Positions 28,110-45,569 of a stretch of 64,000 nt of DNA are shown in pieces. The notes below the pieces were generated by a model. It saw nothing but the letters and a program-made list of their open reading frames with translations. It was not told the origin of the DNA and did no database searches. Each line of letters opens with the position of its first letter. Positions within the stretch are counted from its first letter, which is position 1. This DNA comes from Bdellovibrionia bacterium (lineage in GTDB: Bacteria > Bdellovibrionota > Bdellovibrionia > Bdellovibrionales > JAGQZY01): contig JAUHWN010000001.1 in assembly GCA_030424665.1 (NCBI GenBank), positions 55,223-119,222 on the forward strand, read 5' to 3'. The position numbers and the translations under genes are program-made.

Positions 28110-30638
28110 CTAGAATGTGGTTTCGTACTGGAGATAACTCGTTCGCAATCTCGAATACAAACTACTATCAAACTTGGTCTGAAGATCATCATCAAACTCA
28201 GGTTGAGTGTCGAGAAGGTTCAAGAAACCCAGCTGAAACTTACCATAGGGTGACTTATAATTAATTTGAAAGTCAGCTTCTGTATATACCGGAGTTAAGC
28301 CTTTATTAGGGTCAAACTTTTCAACTACCGAAATAGTTCGTGCAGTAACAGCAGAACCCCAAACATTATCTTTAGACTGCCAATTAATAGTGACCACGTT
28401 TTTCCAATAAGGAAAACCATCTTCACCCAACAAGTCCCTTTTACCAAGTTCTTCATAAGATTCAGAAAAAGCGTGGAACATGACCGTATGATCAATTGAG
28501 TATCTCAAATTACCGAATGAAACTTTATGGTCGTAGGTGAGATTGATATCAAGACCATCCACATCGTCCTTGGCAAAGTTTCTAAGTGGTGCGGAAATAA
28601 ATGAAATCGAGTTACCAGGACCATTTCTTTCAACCACAGCTCCGTATTTGGCTGGATCCGCACCAGCCGCTTCAGCCTCAAGAAGCCCCTGAGCGTCTGA
28701 AGAAACAACGTCTTCAACTTTTGTACGCCAGTAATCAAAGGACATCGAAAAACCCTGCATGGGTTGAATGACCGTACCAATACTGTATGCAAAAGAAGTT
28801 TCCTCTTTAAGGTCAGGATTAGCGCCTTGTTCTGCAGGGTAAAACTGATTATTACATCCAGGTGAATTTGGATCCGCATTACAAAGTACGTAATCGCGAA
28901 CAAATAAAAAGCCCGTCAACTTAGGACCGTATGAATCTTGAAGCGTCGGTGCCTGAAAACCCGTACCAGCAGAGCCTCTAACCATAAACGTATTATTAAT
29001 TTTCCAGCGAGAAGCAATTCGAGGGTTCGTCGTTCCACCGAAATCATTATATTGGTCATGTCGAAGTGAAAGTTGCAGCTCTACTGAGTTTCCAAAGAGA
29101 CCACTTAACTCTCCAAACAAGGCTCCAACAAAACGGTTACCTCCACCAGTGACACCACCAAGGCCTAAGATTTCTCCATTGAGAGTTTCATCATCCCTTT
29201 CATCTTTGTATTCCGAAAATTGAAAGAAGGTACCAAATCCAGCTGACCAAACGGCACCCAGGTATTCTCCAAGCTCTCCATTTGCAGTGGCTTGGGCTGA
29301 ATTGATAATGTAGTAAGCTCTCGAAAATGGGTCGGTCAAAAACCCAGTGGTATTTCTTTTGGTGCTATCAAAAGGGTTGTAGGTATCATTGATAATCGCG
29401 GCTCTCATGGGAGCTCTAAGGCCGTAGTTAGAGTTCTTTTCGTCCGTTAAAAAATAATGGGTATTATTCGAAGCTTTCCATTCCCAATCACTATCTCCCC
29501 ACAAACCTTTAAAGCCAAAAACGTAACCAGCTGAAAGCTGATCAAACTGTGTTTTTCGTTTGGGTAGGTCTTTGAATCTATAGAAAACTTGAATGTCGTT
29601 GCCCGCTGTATAATTGGGAAGAGCCGTTCCCCAATTAGCAGGAGGAGCATCTGCACCGGTAAATCGCTCACCAGTGAATGTGGCTTCAAAGTTTCTTGAG
29701 TTTGAGCGGCCATATCTTAATAATAGGTCTGAGAAAAACTCTAACTCTGAACTCATCTTGTACTTGTAAGATGTGAAACTTGAAAAATCCAGACCAGGCT
29801 CAGAAACCGATTCACTCGCCAATTCTTCTTCACAAAGGCCATCGGCGTTGAGTTCAGTACAAGATGGAAAAGGGAACGTCGTATTCGCATCTGCAGTTAA
29901 ATCAATATAGTTATTAGAAAACCGAGAATCCTTGTTGATTCCCTCTAGATAATTTCGATTAGAAGCCTTAAAGGTATCTGATGCGATAATTTGAAAACTC
30001 GTCATGATTGAGCTTTTTCCCCAAGTATCGCCGTAGGCAATACTCGTTCTCAAGCTTCCACCACCTGGCTGCGATGGGACCGACAACTTAGAGGCAAATA
30101 TGATTTCATCGATATTTTCCCTCGTAATAATATTAACAACACCGGCCAGGGCATCGGAACCATAGGTCGATGAAGCACCTTCCTTTAAAATCTCGATGCG
30201 CTCTACACCCGCCAAAGGGATCACGTTGATATCGGTTCCCGAAGAATAACTATCTCCGCCTGCCGGAAGCCTCTGTCCGTTAACTAGAACTAGTGTTCGA
30301 GCCGAACCGAGTCCTTTGAGGTTGGCTCTATCGGCGCTCGATCCAAAAGGCGAAACCGTTGAGCTTCTCAAAAGTGATCCAACCTCGTTAAATCCAGAGT
30401 TCTCAATTTGTTCTCGATCTATGATTATGATCTGCGACGGGCCTTCCATATCGATTCTTCGAATCAATGAACCAGTTACTTCAATTTTTTCGACATCACT
30501 TTTTGCTGAGCCAACTTGGTTGGTTGTTTCTGCCGACGTTGTTCCCTGTGAAGCATTCGTTTCTTCAGATGAAGAATCTTGCGCTCCAGCGATAAAACTA
30601 GAAAAGATTAGTGCGATTGCAATAAGATACTTAAACAT
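28110..30638 (-). CDS. TonB-dependent outer-membrane receptor
   Basis: 842 aa. Signal peptide, plug domain (IEVTGSLIRR...ERIEILKGASSTYGSDALAGVVNIITR), long beta-barrel, C-terminal ...YETTF. Confidence 0.9.
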   Translation of the reverse strand: MFKYLIAIALIFSSFIAGAQDSSSEETNASQGTTSAETTNQVGSAKSDVEKIEVTGSLIRRIDMEGPSQIIIIDREQIENSGFNEVGSLLRSSTVSPFGSSADRANLKGLGSARTLVLVNGQRLPAGGDSYSSGTDINVIPLAGVERIEILKEGASSTYGSDALAGVVNIITRENIDEIIFASKLSVPSQPGGGSLRTSIAYGDTWGKSSIMTSFQIIASDTFKASNRNYLEGINKDSRFSNNYIDLTADANTTFPFPSCTELNADGLCEEELASESVSEPGLDFSSFTSYKYKMSSELEFFSDLLLRYGRSNSRNFEATFTGERFTGADAPPANWGTALPNYTAGNDIQVFYRFKDLPKRKTQFDQLSAGYVFGFKGLWGDSDWEWKASNNTHYFLTDEKNSNYGLRAPMRAAIINDTYNPFDSTKRNTTGFLTDPFSRAYYIINSAQATANGELGEYLGAVWSAGFGTFFQFSEYKDERDDETLNGEILGLGGVTGGGNRFVGALFGELSGLFGNSVELQLSLRHDQYNDFGGTTNPRIASRWKINNTFMVRGSAGTGFQAPTLQDSYGPKLTGFLFVRDYVLCNADPNSPGCNNQFYPAEQGANPDLKEETSFAYSIGTVIQPMQGFSMSFDYWRTKVEDVVSSDAQGLLEAEAAGADPAKYGAVVERNGPGNSISFISAPLRNFAKDDVDGLDINLTYDHKVSFGNLRYSIDHTVMFHAFSESYEELGKRDLLGEDGFPYWKNVVTINWQSKDNVWGSAVTARTISVVEKFDPNKGLTPVYTEADFQINYKSPYGKFQLGFLNLLDTQPEFDDDLQTKFDSSLYSRLRTSYLQYETTF

Positions 30639-36645: not shown

Positions 36646-37419
36646 TTATTTCTTCTTATAAAATCCGGTCAATTTGTCTTTCAAAGAAGATCCGCATTCT
36701 GTGTTTGCGCGAACTCCAATACCATTTTTAGCAGGTTCATATTCCATGAAGAATGCACACTTATCGAAGGCCGAAAAGTAGGTGGGTTTTTTATGATTAA
36801 ATTGCAGATATCCAACCATTCCTCCACGACTATCTCCCCACTCAGACGATATAATTCCAATATTAATTTTTAACCAGTCCGGGCCGTGAAGTTTTTGTCG
36901 CTTTAAAACGATCTTTACTTGGTTTTTCTTATTTTCGAAGGTGCCAATGTAATTCTTGGTCTTTTCTTGTTTTTGCTCAACGGGACTTTTTTTAGCGGGA
37001 TAGGCGACTTCTTCAATGGTCCCTGAAATCGATTGATCTCTACACTTGGCGAGATCCCCTAGATTTTGCCACTCGTTCTCGGTTCCTTTTTTACGTACAA
37101 AAACATAGGCAATGTCTTTGGCCGATCCGTTAATTGAAACTTCGAAATATCCCTCTTGAATTTCATTACCCATTTTGGCCGGCCCCATATTGACCGATTT
37201 AATATAAATCTTTTTAGGTTCTTTCTGCCCACAGGGTTCACAATATTCCAAATAATGTTTATGGGGACCAAGAACTTTTAATGCCTCTTTTGCCACCTTT
37301 TCACTATTCCAAGCACATTGGTCGCCCCAGGAGGCAGCAGGAAAAAGAACAAAAGCGTGGACAAAGAACAAAATGAAATATTTGTTGTGAAAGTTACTAA
37401 TCTGCAAATTCTTGAACAT
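36646..37419 (-). CDS. secreted hypothetical protein
   Basis: 257 aa. N-terminal hydrophobic signal (FILFFVHAFVLFPAASWG). Overlaps the upstream gene by 23 nt. Confidence 0.5.
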   Translation of the reverse strand: MFKNLQISNFHNKYFILFFVHAFVLFPAASWGDQCAWNSEKVAKEALKVLGPHKHYLEYCEPCGQKEPKKIYIKSVNMGPAKMGNEIQEGYFEVSINGSAKDIAYVFVRKKGTENEWQNLGDLAKCRDQSISGTIEEVAYPAKKSPVEQKQEKTKNYIGTFENKKNQVKIVLKRQKLHGPDWLKINIGIISSEWGDSRGGMVGYLQFNHKKPTYFSAFDKCAFFMEYEPAKNGIGVRANTECGSSLKDKLTGFYKKK

Positions 37420-37960
37420 GACTCAACTCGATCTTCTTGCTTTTTAAATTGAAATTAAAGCAACTGAAGTTGTTATATATATTATCTGTTTGGATACATA
37501 TTTGCGTGGTTTTATACTCTTTTGATTTCTTGAAGCTTCCGACTGCATAGCCATCAAATATATTGCCGCCCTTGCGCCCTGGAGTATCGCAGAGCAGTTC
37601 GAAATCTTTGAGATTTTTAGCCTGATCATCCCAGAAAATCGCCAGAGTCGATGGCATTTCTGAACCTTCTCGATATTCTTTAAGCTCAGTCGTTTGAGCC
37701 GTTTTTCCAGAGCCAGAGTATACATATGCCGACAGACCATCCTTGGGATTTTCTTTGCTCAAATCGAGGATGACAAGACCAACTGCCTTCACTTTCTTAC
37801 TTGAAATCTCACATTTAACAGTTTTCAGAATTCGGAGCTTTGGAACAATCTTCTCTATAGCTTTTGTCGCCGCAAGGACTTCTTTATCTGACGGTGCCGA
37901 TCGTGCCATAAGGGTTGAGCTAAAAAACAAAATGCCAGCAATTAAAAAAACAGTCTTCAA
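37397..37960 (-). CDS. secreted hypothetical protein
   Basis: 187 aa. Signal peptide MKTVFLIAGILFFSSTLMARS. Confidence 0.5.
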   Translation of the reverse strand: MKTVFLIAGILFFSSTLMARSAPSDKEVLAATKAIEKIVPKLRILKTVKCEISSKKVKAVGLVILDLSKENPKDGLSAYVYSGSGKTAQTTELKEYREGSEMPSTLAIFWDDQAKNLKDFELLCDTPGRKGGNIFDGYAVGSFKKSKEYKTTQICIQTDNIYNNFSCFNFNLKSKKIELSHVQEFAD

Positions 37961-40620: not shown

Positions 40621-40973
40621 GGGGGCGTAATGGTTTCGACGTGGGTGTTGAAGTCTGAGGAGCATGCCGGGGCGCTCGAGGTCCTCGTCAAAAACGAGCA
40701 ATCTTTTTAGTTGGCGAAGCTAACTATGCTATGGCTGCCTAATTAGGCTGCCCACTGAACCTTCCGGCGACCGCGCGGTTGGGAATGTGTCACTTTAGTG
40801 GTCTCGATCAAAACTTGGTGTCTCAGGGGGTTTTGATTTAAATAAACCTAGGACAAATCTTTTGGAAGTTTGTCTGTGGAAGTTCGAAAGATTATCAAAC
40901 ATAGACTAAGCATGTAGCCCGCCTTTGCATGGATCGTTCGCGGACGGGGGTTCGATTCCCCCCGCCTCCACCA
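40621..40973 (+). ncRNA. ssrA: tmRNA (transfer-messenger RNA)
   Basis: 5' GGGGGCGTAATGGTTTCGACG. 3' T-arm GGGGGTTCGATTCCCCCC plus acceptor CGCCTCC-A-CCA pairing with the 5' end (G-U at position 3). Internal tag reading frame ends ...GEANYAMAA-TAA (stop 40740-40742). Resume codon not determined. Confidence 0.95.
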
Positions 40974-40983
40974 GAATCATTCA

Positions 40984-41017
40984 GATATCCGATATCGGAT
41001 ATCTGATATCGGATATC
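40984..41017. repeat. five GATATC hexamers at 7-bp period (nested palindromes)
   Basis: GATATC-C-GATATC-G-GATATC-T-GATATC-G-GATATC, including a perfect 20-bp palindrome at 40984-41003. Sits between the tmRNA 3' end and the stop codon of the convergent gene. Confidence 0.85.
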
Positions 41018-41351
41018 AGTTGTGAGCTTTTCGCCAGTTTGGCGAATCTTTAATTTTTGAATTAACGAGTTTGTAAAGGCTTGCGCCAAGCGCATCGGCC
41101 TTATCATTTACTTTTTGGTTTTCAATACCAACAAGTTCAAAGATGGTCTGACACTCTCTTAGTGACCCGTAAGCCGTTGTAAAGAAACTACGTTTCTCTT
41201 TTGCCGAACCTTTGGCATTACCCTCCGAAAGGTTTAATGCAATCGACGTTGCAGCCCGGTGAAGCTGATCCCTCAAATGACCTGTTATTTTGAGCTGACA
41301 AGCCATTTTGCTAAATTCGATTGCTAACTCTAATGTTCTAAACTTTTTCAT
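41016..41351 (-). CDS. four-helix-bundle protein (23S rRNA intervening-sequence protein / Avd-like family, TIGR02436-like)
   Basis: 111 aa. Hallmark blocks L..QL.RAATSIALNLSEG and Y.SL.E. in ...FFTTAYGSLRECQT. Confidence 0.8.
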   Translation of the reverse strand: MKKFRTLELAIEFSKMACQLKITGHLRDQLHRAATSIALNLSEGNAKGSAKEKRSFFTTAYGSLRECQTIFELVGIENQKVNDKADALGASLYKLVNSKIKDSPNWRKAHN

Positions 41352-41357
41352 ACGATC

Positions 41358-41417
41358 AATCCTTTGTTTGAATGCTTGGTCGTTACAAAATCAAGACCCA
41401 GCTTCAAACAAAGGATT
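41358..41417. repeat. 15-bp perfect inverted repeat
   Basis: AATCCTTTGTTTGAA (41358-41372) / TTCAAACAAAGGATT (41403-41417), 30-nt spacer. Starts 7 nt upstream of the four-helix-bundle start codon. Confidence 0.8.
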
Positions 41418-41446
41418 TTGACAATTATTTTCAAACTCACTAGATT
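41418..41446 (+). promoter_or_regulatory. candidate promoter facing the GC-rich spacer
   Basis: TTGACA (41418-41423) - 17 nt - TAGATT (41441-41446). Confidence 0.3.
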
Positions 41447-41524
41447 TGAAGTGAAGCGGCAGCTTCGACGGGGTTCGCGAGGGCGTGAGCCTCGAACGCA
41501 GTTTCGGGGCGAGGCTCGCCCAAG

Positions 41525-41539
41525 TTCCCGCCTCCACCA
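41525..41539 (+). repeat. direct repeat of the tmRNA 3' end (att-like)
   Basis: TTCCCGCCTCCACCA matches the last residues of ssrA (TTCC[CCC]CGCCTCCACCA, 40958-40973 region). Confidence 0.6.
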
Positions 41540-41631
41540 AATTACGAACCAAGAATGGTTCCTAAATATTTATAAAAATTAGACTTTGCACTTGGATGGT
41601 GAATTCTTTTGGTTCAGGGGTTTAGAGTGAC

Positions 41632-41659
41632 TTGACAGAGCATCTTCGAAACACATACT
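41632..41659 (+). promoter_or_regulatory. candidate promoter of the KAP NTPase gene
   Basis: TTGACA (41632-41637) - 16 nt - CATACT (41654-41659). Same hexamers as the ssrA promoter candidate. ATGATG at 41664-41669. Confidence 0.35.
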
Positions 41660-41791
41660 AGCCATGATGAGGGGGCCCAAATCTTAAATTTAGACTCAGA
41701 TCCTATAAGTTCATCAAGATACGATCTTTTAAATCGACATAGCATAGTTGAGTACATTTATAGACTAATTGAAGACTCCAAAGGCAAGCCA

Positions 41792-43774
41792 TTGCGTATA
41801 GGCTTGTTTGGCCCCTGGGGTAGTGGTAAATCCTCTATTTTATCAATCTTAGAAAATGAAGAGCTGTCAGATACAAATTACAAGATTGTTCGATTTAATC
41901 CTTGGATTTATTCAAGTGAAGATGACCTTATCAATGGCTTTAATACAGAGGTCTTTTTCAACTTTAAAGTTTCTTCTAAAAAAATAAACACCGATTGGAT
42001 TAAAAAAGGTGCTGATGCAGTAGGTAGCCTATTAGACAAAGCAAATATAAATATTGAAAAGCTGGGAACATTTGGCATTGCCGCAAGTCAAGTTGGCAAC
42101 TTTCTTAAAAGTGTCCTAATTAACAAAGACACGATTGGACAAATCATTGAAGCTTGTGACAGGAGAGTGATTTTTATAATAGAAGATATTGATCGATGCA
42201 ATATCAATATAATAAAGCCGTTTCTTTTATATTTGCGAGAAGTGCTAAATCAAAAAGATGTCGTAACAATCTTCGTTTCAGATCTATCTGCACTAAATAA
42301 AGGCTTCGATGAATCAAGTAATTTGCAAGGATTCTTCGAAAAGATTTATGACTACCCAATATTTATAGAGGACATGAAGACGGGTGAGGCATCTGAATTT
42401 ATTTTGAAAAGTGAGGAGTGTCCATACCCTCCAAAAATTTTGGATAAATATGCTTATCTGTTACCGAATAACCCTCGCTCACTCAAGAAGGTATGCAGAA
42501 GTTTTTCTCTTTTAAAGAAAGAGATCGATAGGCAGCACCCGGCCGACATTTCGCTTAAGGAGCTTTTTATTACCCAGACTCTGATGCTCAAATACCCAAC
42601 TCTCTCGAGACTTTTTCTTAATGAGGAGGATCTTTATCTACATGCAGTTCGAAACCAATATTTACGTTCAAGAGATAACCGTACTGAAGAAGAAAAGCGT
42701 GAACAATTAGAAAAGTCATTAACCGATCTTTTAGATAAACATGCTTCAAACATTGCAACGGATGAAGAGAAAAAATCTTTCGTGAAGGACATGATGGCTC
42801 TTTACATAAGCGATCTATTTTATTTAGGAGAAAGAACTTTTTTCTATGCCCGAATTGTTTCGGAGCCGGTCCCTGTAACTAGAAAAGAAATCGAATCATT
42901 TCTAAGCAAGAATCTGTCTGACATCAGTGTTGAGGATATCATAAGTTACCAGGGGGTAAAATCGCTCAGCGATTTAGAAACCTTAGAATCATTATTAAAC
43001 TTTCGATCCCAGTTCCTCGAGCAGTATTATAAAACGTTCTTTAAATCCTGCCTGGGAGATTGTCTAAAGTCTATACTTAAAGTAACCGAGCTTATTCATT
43101 CATTTTTGATAAACGACAGAAGATATACCAATGAATTATTTGGTCATGCTGTGGGCAATTTCAGACAATGGGGCTCAGTTATACGATGTGATAGTCCAAA
43201 TAACAGCGACGACTTGGACGCGATCATTTCCTTGGAAGACAGAATCATATCTGATGCTGTGGAAACCACTAACGATAAATATGGCTTAAAAAAAGTTGCT
43301 GACAGCGTGCTAGAGAATCAACGGCTTTTTGGCGACGGAAACCCATTGTTCGAGATTCTGAAAACCTCCATTGTTGAGGCTATTAGTGACGATGTGGGTG
43401 CCTCTTTTGTTGAAACGCTTGTTGAGAGCCCTGAGCTGATTGGCGATCAGGATTTTTGTAGCAATTATAGGGATGAAATTACCAAAGAAAATCTTAAGTT
43501 AATATTTGATGGCCTCAAGGCTATAGCTGATCCTCAAGTTCAATCCGAAAAGATTTATATTTTTTTCGAAAAATGGTTAAGAGATAAAAGTACTTTTTTC
43601 CACTTCATTCATAATTGGCATGAGGTTAAAGAAGAGCTACGTGAAGATATTTTCGATCTTTGGTCAAAAATTGATTCTGAACATTTAACTCGGTGGGGAG
43701 ATTCACTTAGGGCTTATATGGAGAAAAACCTTGGCAGCCACTTGCCAGAAGAAACAGCGGACCCAAATCAGTAG
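41792..43774 (+). CDS. KAP-family P-loop NTPase (5' end probably disrupted or mis-called; see findings)
   Basis: 660-aa track ORF. Walker A GLFGPWGSGKSS, Walker B VIFIIEDIDRC, long helical C-terminal region. In-frame KAP-like N-terminal sequence continues upstream to 41636 without a start codon. Confidence 0.8.
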   Translation: MRIGLFGPWGSGKSSILSILENEELSDTNYKIVRFNPWIYSSEDDLINGFNTEVFFNFKVSSKKINTDWIKKGADAVGSLLDKANINIEKLGTFGIAASQVGNFLKSVLINKDTIGQIIEACDRRVIFIIEDIDRCNINIIKPFLLYLREVLNQKDVVTIFVSDLSALNKGFDESSNLQGFFEKIYDYPIFIEDMKTGEASEFILKSEECPYPPKILDKYAYLLPNNPRSLKKVCRSFSLLKKEIDRQHPADISLKELFITQTLMLKYPTLSRLFLNEEDLYLHAVRNQYLRSRDNRTEEEKREQLEKSLTDLLDKHASNIATDEEKKSFVKDMMALYISDLFYLGERTFFYARIVSEPVPVTRKEIESFLSKNLSDISVEDIISYQGVKSLSDLETLESLLNFRSQFLEQYYKTFFKSCLGDCLKSILKVTELIHSFLINDRRYTNELFGHAVGNFRQWGSVIRCDSPNNSDDLDAIISLEDRIISDAVETTNDKYGLKKVADSVLENQRLFGDGNPLFEILKTSIVEAISDDVGASFVETLVESPELIGDQDFCSNYRDEITKENLKLIFDGLKAIADPQVQSEKIYIFFEKWLRDKSTFFHFIHNWHEVKEELREDIFDLWSKIDSEHLTRWGDSLRAYMEKNLGSHLPEETADPNQ

Positions 43775-43779
43775 AAATC

Positions 43780-43803
43780 GTACATACTAAAATGAGTATG
43801 TAC
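43780..43803 (+). terminator. hairpin downstream of the KAP gene (weak terminator candidate)
   Basis: GTACATACT-AAAATG-AGTATGTAC, followed by ATTTA. AT-rich stem and no clean T-run. Confidence 0.3.
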
Positions 43804-44134: not shown

Positions 44135-44944
44135 CTAAAACCTTCGCCTTCTTCTAGATAACCTGGGGCGTGGGACAACTCTGTAACCTAGAGTATCTTG
44201 AACCGATGGCTTGTTGAGTGGTGGCAACTTAACTTTTCTAGCATTTCCCTTTTTCTTTTGAAGTACTCCACTAATGATTTGAAATGTATGATTCAGCAAT
44301 TTAGTGTATCCACAGTTTTGATCTTCACTTATATGTAAATTAATGAAGTCATTCTTTTTTACTTTGGCGAAATATGCTAAATTTTCATTTTCGATTGGAA
44401 GCATCAACCAACACACCTCATTCCCTTCGATGTCAAAAAGCACCGGCTTGATACCTTCACCCCAATCGCTGAGGAGATAATTGCCTTTCTTTTCGACAAT
44501 CACAGTATATGGATGGCCTGGCAAGGCCAGCCCTCCATTTGCCATTTCAAAAAACCGTTTAGTCTCTTGCTGTCGATAGAGGTGAACAACCCATGTTATT
44601 TTCCCGTAAACTTTGTTTCTAGAAGCTCGTTCTTCTGAGCTTATGGGTGAATGTTGAAACTCAAGGACCCAACTATTCTTTGTTTTTACGTCAGCAAAGT
44701 GCCTTTCCCCATTAATATCAGAATGAAAGACTTCCTGCCATTCAACTGGAAAATGATTCTTCCACCCACGATGCCAATCTGTTTCTTCCTTATTCAGAGG
44801 GCAATTGCACTCAACTTTATGGGCCCAGTGCCAAACTCTTTTCTTTCCACATCTTGCTAATACAGGTTGATCGCAACCTGGGCAGACTCCCTTTAATCCT
44901 GGCTCTGCTCCGCGTCGAGCGCCTTCCACAAGTGCAGTCTTCAT
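44135..44944 (-). CDS. CoiA-like (competence protein CoiA family) putative nuclease
   Basis: Start set at ATG 44944 (AGGAGG RBS). N-terminal zinc-ribbon-like CPGC...HWAH, then ETDWHRGWKNHF, then ERHFADVKTKNSWVLEFQHSPIS (D...E.Q PD-(D/E)xK-like core). Arg-rich C-terminal tail. Confidence 0.5.
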   Translation of the reverse strand: MKTALVEGARRGAEPGLKGVCPGCDQPVLARCGKKRVWHWAHKVECNCPLNKEETDWHRGWKNHFPVEWQEVFHSDINGERHFADVKTKNSWVLEFQHSPISSEERASRNKVYGKITWVVHLYRQQETKRFFEMANGGLALPGHPYTVIVEKKGNYLLSDWGEGIKPVLFDIEGNEVCWLMLPIENENLAYFAKVKKNDFINLHISEDQNCGYTKLLNHTFQIISGVLQKKKGNARKVKLPPLNKPSVQDTLGYRVVPRPRLSRRRRRF

Positions 44945-45032
44945 AAAATTCCTCCTGACAGTTGATGGTTCCCAATCCATCTGTTACATGTTTTTATCGT
45001 AAAAGGCGTTACGCTTTCAAGAGGGCCAAAGT

Positions 45033-45569
45033 TTGAAAAAACCGTTACATAGCAAAAAAGAGCAGTTCCTATTGTCTAGTAAAGGGCGTCTTATTGGCTG
45101 GGGTGCAGCTGACGTTAAAAATCTGATTAAAAATGCAAATAGAGCTAAAGCAGAAAAGTTACATGAAAAGAACAGAATCACCATAAGAGACGCGGAATGC
45201 GTTTTTGCCCTGGAATGGCTGGATTCCTTTGTTGAAAAAGGAATTACAAAGGCAGTCGTCGAAAAGTTGAACTCTCGAATTGCTCATGTCAGATATCATC
45301 ATATTCTGATGCATTCCCCGAAAGGAAAACCGTATTGGAGGTATGTAGCAAACGGTGATCAAATTGATGACCCAGAACTTTGTATTGCTTATGGGGTGTC
45401 TCATCTTTTGGCTTCTGGGGCACTTGATGGATTAAAAAAATGCCAAGTGAAAGACTGTCAAAAATTCTTTATTGGGAGGCCGAATTCTAAGTGGTGTTCC
45501 AAGTCTTGCGGTTCAAAATTTCGAGTTAGAAAGCAACGTGAAAGGAACTTCAATGACTACTTACTATAG
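45033..45569 (+). CDS. protein with C-terminal CGNR-type zinc finger
   Basis: 178 aa, TTG start. C-terminal CQVKDCQKFFIGRPNSKWCSKSCGSKFRVRKQRER fits C-x4-C...F...WCS..CG......R of zf-CGNR. The N-terminal part is not recognised. Confidence 0.5.
   Translation: MKKPLHSKKEQFLLSSKGRLIGWGAADVKNLIKNANRAKAEKLHEKNRITIRDAECVFALEWLDSFVEKGITKAVVEKLNSRIAHVRYHHILMHSPKGKPYWRYVANGDQIDDPELCIAYGVSHLLASGALDGLKKCQVKDCQKFFIGRPNSKWCSKSCGSKFRVRKQRERNFNDYLL

Follow-up and report, generated by a model that had tools for sequence, protein, structure and literature searches.

The Escherichia coli genes infC and pcnB start with AUU codons. Initiation at near-cognate codons (AUC, AUA and AUU) has been measured in the same organism, where AUC directs synthesis with an N-terminal methionine at 1-2% of the AUG level, or at 0.02-3% by a second reporter (bioRxiv 10.1101/063800). 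The poly-G/C loci of Campylobacter, Neisseria and Haemophilus and the programmed -1 frameshifting of the dnaX type are further systems for comparison. We have analysed a gene for a predicted KAP-family P-loop NTPase whose 5' end invites comparison with each of these. It lies on the forward strand of a 64,000-nucleotide stretch of Bdellovibrionia bacterium DNA (assembly GCA_030424665.1, contig JAUHWN010000001.1, positions 55,223 to 119,222), hereafter called the window, whose coordinates are used throughout. A preliminary description had reported that the conserved N-terminus of the protein lacks a start codon and is 1 nt out of frame with an ATGATG located just before a run of five Gs, and had considered a slipped-strand ON/OFF switch, a recent pseudogenisation, or a sequencing or assembly indel. 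Our analysis confirmed the observation itself and supported its interpretation in part. The gene appears to begin within 41681-41686, neither at the annotated TTG 41792 nor at the ATGATG, and we give an even chance to a near-cognate start at ATC 41681, served by the ribosome-binding site GAGGGGG and leading to a weakly expressed product of 697 residues. Such phenomena are known: the start codon is near-cognate or mutated, and the 5' end has been mis-called as well.

As in the genes with near-cognate starts, an in-frame AUC occupies the place where homologues start and follows a Shine-Dalgarno sequence by 5 nt, and low initiation would be expected from it. The locus differs from infC and pcnB in that use of the codon is only predicted and autoregulation is not in evidence, in that the non-AUG start is not conserved (the homologous codon is ATG in 6/6 relatives), and in that it may be simply a mutated start. 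With the poly-G/C loci it shares a G homopolymer beside an out-of-frame ATG at the 5' end, where a 1-nt change restores the frame, but the tract has 5 nt against at least 7 (PMC6321876), shows no length differences between data sets and is explained as a Shine-Dalgarno sequence, and no such run in the window exceeds 6. With dnaX it shares a -1 offset between two frames and a stretch of one repeated base on which a tRNA can re-pair; it differs by the absence of a slippery heptamer and of a downstream hairpin or pseudoknot, and its Shine-Dalgarno-like element lies on the slip site, not upstream of it.

The conserved N-terminus upstream of the annotated start

The annotated open reading frame (ORF) starts at TTG 41792 (41792-41794), six codons 5' of the Walker A motif GPWGSGKS (41810-41833), exactly as had been described. 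The same frame is bounded by TGA 41633-41635 and is open from 41636, with no ATG, GTG or TTG until TTG 41792; this upstream part translates as QSIFETHTSHDEGAQILNLDSDPISSSRYDLLNRHSIVEYIYRLIEDSKGKP. Its 52 open codons before the first canonical start are the maximum among 61 long ORFs in the window, the runner-up having 35. TTG 41792 is annotated because gene callers require ATG, GTG or TTG. From the ribosome-binding site onward the sequence reads gaGAGGGGGcccaa-ATC-TTA-AAT-TTA-GAC-TCA-GAT-CCT-ATA. The ATGATG (41664-41669) stands in the adjacent frame and is followed by G5 (41671-41675), CCC (41676-41678) and AAA (41679-41681). Its own frame encodes MMRGPKS, a 7-codon ORF (41664-41687) ending at TAA 41685-41687, which overlaps the ribosome-binding site and the start region and has no Shine-Dalgarno match upstream. 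One additional G in the tract would indeed give MMRGAQILNLD..., continuous with the KAP frame, as the preliminary description had pointed out.

Several lines of evidence indicate that the upstream frame is part of the protein. The extended stop-to-stop peptide matches the Pfam family KAP_NTPase (PF07693) with E=5e-25 and 88.7 bits, where 20 would suffice. Extended residues 35-259 align to positions 2-240 of the profile, so that the match begins 18 residues before the TTG. In addition, an N-terminal profile was built from 75 homologue N-termini, restricted to the residues preceding strand beta1 and including nothing from the annotated ORF. When run against 1895 six-frame peptides of the window, its sole match was the KAP upstream peptide (E=4.4e-5; next 0.62), over extended residues 22-49 (DPISSSRYDLLNRHSIVEYIYRLIEDSK, 41699-41782). 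With residues numbered from ATC 41681, as is done hereafter, P8 and D15 of this segment are kept in at least 90% of the sequences of a 43-sequence alignment. The conserved segment of about 40 residues that precedes beta1 in the family (D-x-P-I ... D-x-L-x-R followed by a helix) is thus present, and only upstream of the annotated start. The preliminary description had called this N-terminus conserved and cut by the annotated start, leaving as a possible objection that the upstream frame might not resemble KAP N-termini; both the profile and the Pfam match, which starts upstream of the TTG, bear it out.

The AlphaFold2 model is in keeping with this. Its mean predicted local distance difference test score (pLDDT) is 80.6, with values of 86-96 across residues 11-40. 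A helix modelled at residues 20-32 (pLDDT about 95) directly precedes beta1 (residues 38-43), of which TTG 41792, residue 38, is the first residue. In the STAND/AAA+ fold a helix precedes beta1. Structural neighbours found by Foldseek were generic STAND/AAA+ proteins only, such as Cdc6/ORC, CED-4/Apaf-1 and RdrA, and sequence and profile searches of the PDB found no KAP structure. Besides Walker A, the protein has a Walker B motif, IFIIEDIDR, with the invariant D, D and R columns, and alignments show that the remainder of the ORF retains all invariant family residues. On these sequence comparisons and the model, we take the upstream frame to encode the real KAP N-terminus. The TTG start is not credible because the upstream frame resembles KAP N-termini.

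Homologue starts and the ribosome-binding site

A search of 5.8 billion proteins returned the identical 660-residue call and then homologues of at most 31% identity, while the GTDB species representatives contained neither the source genome nor any relative above 32% identity. The six closest homologues (L003-L008) come from two Logan contigs and from four metagenome-assembled loci of Bacteriovoracaceae/Bdellovibrionales in GTDB. All six start with ATG-AAT/AAC-TTA/CTA and read MNL[ST][SA]NPI, or MNYNSNPI in L008, where the window has LNLDSDPI. Their ATG aligns with TTA 41684 (41684-41686), ATC 41681 (41681-41683) being one codon earlier, and their frames are little or not open 5' of the ATG. 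In five of the six, a G-rich Shine-Dalgarno motif lies 4-8 nt before the ATG; the start region of L008 is tttGGGGGAataATG, with GGGGGA-ATA-ATG. The number of residues before the Walker A glycine leads to the same place. Among 78 homologues its mode is 43 (48/78) and its minimum 28, in line with the earlier remark that KAP NTPases carry tens of residues before the P-loop. A start at ATC 41681 gives 43, the family mode, and one at TTA 41684 gives 42, as in the nearest homologues, with the same number hand-counted in homologue P0002; ATGATG with one more G gives 48-49, and TTG 41792 gives 6. Homologue P0003 aligns without N-terminal gaps.

Pairing with the ribosome was evaluated as the duplex energy between positions -20 to -3 of each start and a generic 16S rRNA 3' end (ACCUCCUUU). 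The duplex before ATC 41681 or TTA 41684 reached -10.6 kcal/mol, which places it among the best 0.4% when 5000 random positions are ranked and ahead of 97% of the 61 long-ORF starts in the window. It is formed by GAGGGGG (41669-41675), which includes the G5 tract. The energy was +0.1 kcal/mol before either ATG of the ATGATG and -3.4 kcal/mol before TTG 41792, where a weak AAAGG stands 8 nt upstream; the latter value is equalled by 24% of random positions. Six near-cognate codons are in frame (ATC 41642, ATC 41681, ATA 41705, ATA 41744, ATT 41756 and ATT 41768), and only ATC 41681 has a Shine-Dalgarno match, the others ranging from -2.4 to +0.4 kcal/mol. This ATC is at the homologous start position and 5 nt after GAGGGGG, inside the 4-9 nt spacing set for a near-cognate start. 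Motifs of this sort are usual in the window, whose genes often carry GGAG, GAGG, GAGGGG or AGGGGG 4-7 nt before the start, the longer ones being exemplified by aaaGAGGGGActgtATG at 28110-30638(-) and cAGGGGGAtctaTTG at 37397-37960(-). The RNA at 41660-41770 was less structured than shuffled controls (z=+1.48), a result in keeping with a site of initiation and without a structure that would stimulate frameshifting. From its pairing and position, the G5 tract forms the central part of GAGGGGG, the predicted ribosome-binding site of the gene.

The ATGATG is probably fortuitous, a hexamer found 37 times across both strands of the window, and possibly a tiny leaderless upstream ORF. A promoter-like TTGACA-16 nt-CATACT (41632-41659), an unverified match to 10 of the 12 consensus positions, would set the mRNA 5' end at about 41664-41668, a few bases before the ribosome-binding site, and had led to the suggestion of a leaderless or nearly leaderless mRNA. 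The pattern is real, yet its frequency does not exceed chance (2 in 1.2 kb against 2.8 +/- 1.5 in shuffles), and we did not build on the leaderless idea. Rfam searches of 41352-41800 at permissive thresholds gave chance-level matches only, with no leader RNA family that would explain the region.

We propose that the strong Shine-Dalgarno sequence GAGGGGG recruits ribosomes and that ATC 41681, as the only usable codon at the right distance, would be decoded by the initiator with formyl-methionine (fMet), with no more than a few percent of the efficiency of AUG. The gene would then extend over 41681-43774 (697 codons and a stop), as delimited by Pfam, the alignments and the AlphaFold2 model, and would yield low levels of a full-length 697-residue protein, (M)LNLDSDPISSSRYDLLNR..., with an N-terminus as long as in the family. 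The ATGATG would be coincidental or at most a tiny upstream ORF. The predicted N-termini set the starts apart: fMet-LNLDSDPISSSR from the ATC, MRIGLFGPWGSGK from the TTG, and MMRGAQILNLD from a frameshifted product.

Competing accounts of the 5' end

The allele was found unchanged in independent data. The window is matched at 100% identity, G5 included, by contigs that Logan assembled from SRR24442558 (7.4 kb) and ERR3428543 (6.4 kb), and likewise by a 2.1-kb contig of ERR3420974, recorded in two samples and found via the neighbouring 111-residue gene; besides the window, no fewer than three read sets, drawn from two studies or more, thus carry this allele. No variant alleles were found in JGI metagenome contigs scanned with both flanks and a variable G-run, and a 26-mer just 3' of the start, which catches start-codon variants, found nothing in JGI and IMG/VR.

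Several points weigh against initiation at the ATC. Both its use and a weak rather than silent expression are deductions from the DNA, and natural genes very rarely start at ATC. A non-ATG start is found in none of the six close homologues, so a near-cognate start is not a conserved trait of the family. The nearest homologues are only 25-32% identical, and for this reason the ancestral codon is not reconstructable. The available copies show 100% identity throughout, which leaves no variation from which selection on the N-terminal codons could be measured. The organism's own 16S 3' end does not lie in the window, and the duplex energies are those of a generic one. Finally, a start-codon substitution that silences the gene would look the same in the sequence.

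This last account keeps the same anatomy and supposes a point substitution, ATG to ATC or TTG to TTA at 41684, which left a very young pseudogene with an undecayed body. We consider it possible but doubtful. One base change suffices for either substitution, ATG occupies this position in 6/6 close homologues, natural ATC starts are rare, and an otherwise intact ORF fits a recent event. Defence-type genes are often lost, which also speaks for it. Against this, the start codon makes up only 3 nt of a 2.1-kb gene, where most inactivating mutations would be expected elsewhere; the ORF keeps all its invariant residues, and the allele persists without change across several metagenomic data sets of two or more studies. 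A near-cognate start would also need just such an unusually strong Shine-Dalgarno sequence. Moreover, AUC initiation is measurable in E. coli (bioRxiv 10.1101/063800), so that "silenced" grades into "weakly expressed".

A more elaborate version of ATC initiation, which we regard as improbable, is that of an evolved throttle. The very strong Shine-Dalgarno sequence, the AUC start and the overlapping, possibly leaderless 7-codon upstream ORF, with its stop on codons 2-3 of the gene, would together keep the basal amount of a defence-type and potentially toxic KAP NTPase very low and tunable at translation.

It is distinctly unlikely that a G6 to G5 deletion severed the ATGATG from the frame, whether this left a pseudogene with a fixed frameshift or a slipped-strand switch that turns ON and OFF slowly. 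An extra G does restore MMRGAQILNLD..., 48-49 residues before Walker A are found in 6/78 homologues, and the promoter-like site would render the ATGATG leaderless; that site, however, is not above chance. The ATGATG has no Shine-Dalgarno sequence, whereas most genes here have one, and the six close homologues begin at the equivalent of 41684, 5-6 codons 3' of it. It thus lacks both the initiation signals of its own (+0.1 kcal/mol) and the orthologue-matching N-terminus that a contingency gene would have. The G-run, for its part, makes a top-0.4% Shine-Dalgarno sequence at ideal spacing from the homologous start. At five Gs the tract falls under the cut-off of at least 7 that contingency-locus software applies to poly-G/C (PMC6321876), and it is one of 45 G/C runs of at least 5 in the 64-kb window (39 with a length of 5 and six with a length of 6, while none reaches 7). 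Its consensus length is the same in the window and in the three other assemblies. The slipped-strand switch of the preliminary description finds no backing in so short, common and invariant a tract, nor does an indel linking the ATGATG to the KAP frame; of its recent pseudogenisation, the route through the G tract is not supported and the one through a start-codon substitution, weighed above, is possible.

TTG 41792 has a poor chance of being the true start, from which a truncated 660-residue NTPase would be made. It is the first canonical start codon in the frame and has the weak AAAGG 8 nt upstream (-3.4 kcal/mol), a Shine-Dalgarno match that 24% of random positions equal. The product would have 6 residues before Walker A where the minimum in 78 homologues is 28, and would lose the near-invariant P8 and D15 together with the confidently modelled helix before beta1. 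Such a start would also leave unexplained the 37 open, family-like conserved codons upstream of it.

Recoding is very improbable. Ribosomes starting at a leaderless ATGATG would shift by -1 on G-GGG-G into the KAP frame, or termination of the 7-codon upstream ORF at TAA 41685-41687 would be coupled to re-initiation at ATC 41681. The tRNA-Gly on GGG 41673-41675 can re-pair perfectly at 41672-41674, the upstream ORF terminates across codons 2-3 of the KAP frame, and the predicted transcription start is near the ATGATG. But no X-XXY-YYZ heptamer exists in the ATG frame, the fold of 41660-41770 is weaker than that of shuffles (z=+1.48) and provides no downstream stimulatory structure, the promoter-like site is not above chance, and the homologues are without such an arrangement.

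Homopolymers are a known source of error in some sequencing chemistries. A homopolymer sequencing or assembly error is nevertheless very unlikely indeed, the window agreeing base for base over 2-7 kb, G5 included, with what Logan assembled from three runs of two or more studies, and one of these runs, SRR24442558, being a paired-end biofloc aquaculture metagenome (PMC10582022), for which we assume Illumina reads with a low indel error at G5.

The main value of the case is a lesson in annotation. The start-codon rule of gene callers trims 37 conserved residues, including the helix before the P-loop strand, and a reader of the bare letters is drawn to a "slippery" G-run that is really, on the pairing given above, the ribosome-binding site. 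If the ATC is used, the gene would be one more natural case of near-cognate initiation and would suggest that a stand-alone KAP NTPase is kept very low; if the throttle holds, a Bdellovibrio-like bacterium would have a natural and functional gene initiated at AUC. A dead gene, on the other hand, would be an ordinary young pseudogene. Neither outcome alters what is known of phase variation or recoding.

The protein and its genomic neighbourhood

The highest 19-residue Kyte-Doolittle mean in the protein is 1.04, which indicates no membrane-type segment, and its sequence is that of a predicted soluble KAP-family P-loop NTPase. Many KAP members carry transmembrane helices within the NTPase domain; many bacterial KAP proteins lack them, so membership of the family is not excluded. 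The C-terminal 400 residues are all-helical in the AlphaFold2 model and are common only to a small group of Bacteriovoracaceae proteins. The KAP_NTPase domain is shared with QatA of QatABCD and with PifA, the F-plasmid protein of T7 exclusion, whose PADLOC models match residues 13-82 and 29-172 respectively, that is, only the first 70-170 residues. Position 9 of the QatA model falls on residue 13, which accords with a start near 41681. QatBCD models had no match in the two downstream and two upstream neighbour genes, and we rejected membership of QatABCD or PifA beyond the shared P-loop domain, given these absent neighbours and a match limited to the N-terminal part.

A KAP homologue is found 44 nt after a McrB (AAA_5)/McrC pair, on the same strand, in two Bacteriovoracaceae contigs (L003 1-2957 and L005), an adjacency that suggests that members of this KAP subgroup reside in defence islands or operons. 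The distance in the window from the KAP gene back to the upstream ssrA is about 700 bp (from the ATC) to 800 bp (from the TTG); ssrA (40621-40973) is the gene of the transfer-messenger RNA (tmRNA). The G+C content of 41600-43800 is 0.36-0.39, for 0.41-0.47 in the flanks, and is compatible with horizontal acquisition beside ssrA. An integrase was not found among ten further flanking ORFs scanned. The gene could plausibly act in defence or be carried as cargo by a mobile island. It is followed downstream by genes for a CoiA-like protein at 44135-44980 (-), with a CoiA_N zinc-ribbon and a weak match to the CoiA nuclease, and a CGNR zinc-finger protein at 45033-45569 (+); neither matched a PADLOC defence model.

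Between ssrA and the KAP gene stands a single gene, 41016-41351 (-), for a 111-residue 23S rRNA intervening-sequence/four-helix-bundle protein (PF05635, 53 bits), a family that includes the Avd proteins of diversity-generating retroelements. Among the neighbours scanned, no reverse transcriptase was seen. Immediately 5' of this gene, in the divergent intergenic region, is a perfect 15-nt inverted repeat (41358-41372/41403-41417, AATCCTTTGTTTGAA ... TTCAAACAAAGGATT, with a 30-nt loop), possibly an operator or a hairpin. The 13 nt that end the tmRNA gene (CCCGCCTCCACCA, 40961-40973) recur exactly 566 nt downstream at 41527-41539, with a chance expectation of 0.02. The second copy sits in a GC-rich element of about 90 nt (about 41455-41545) that also holds TTCGACGGGGTTCGCGA, similar to the 5' part of tmRNA; Rfam does not call this element a tmRNA. 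The 13-nt repeat resembles an att-type duplication or an ssrA remnant, and it brackets the PF05635 gene only, the KAP gene being just beyond. Directly 3' of the tmRNA, palindromic repeats containing GATATC (TCAGATATCCGATATCGGATATCTGATATCGGATATC, 40981-41017) are followed by a terminator-like hairpin at 41030-41046. Lastly, 12 bases of the tmRNA tag-coding region (40722-40733, AACTATGCTATG, part of ANYAMAA) are perfectly complementary to CATAGCATAGTT at 41738-41749, in the N-terminal coding part of the KAP gene; by our own estimate about 0.07 such pairs are expected in 1.5 kb, and the complementarity is probably due to chance.

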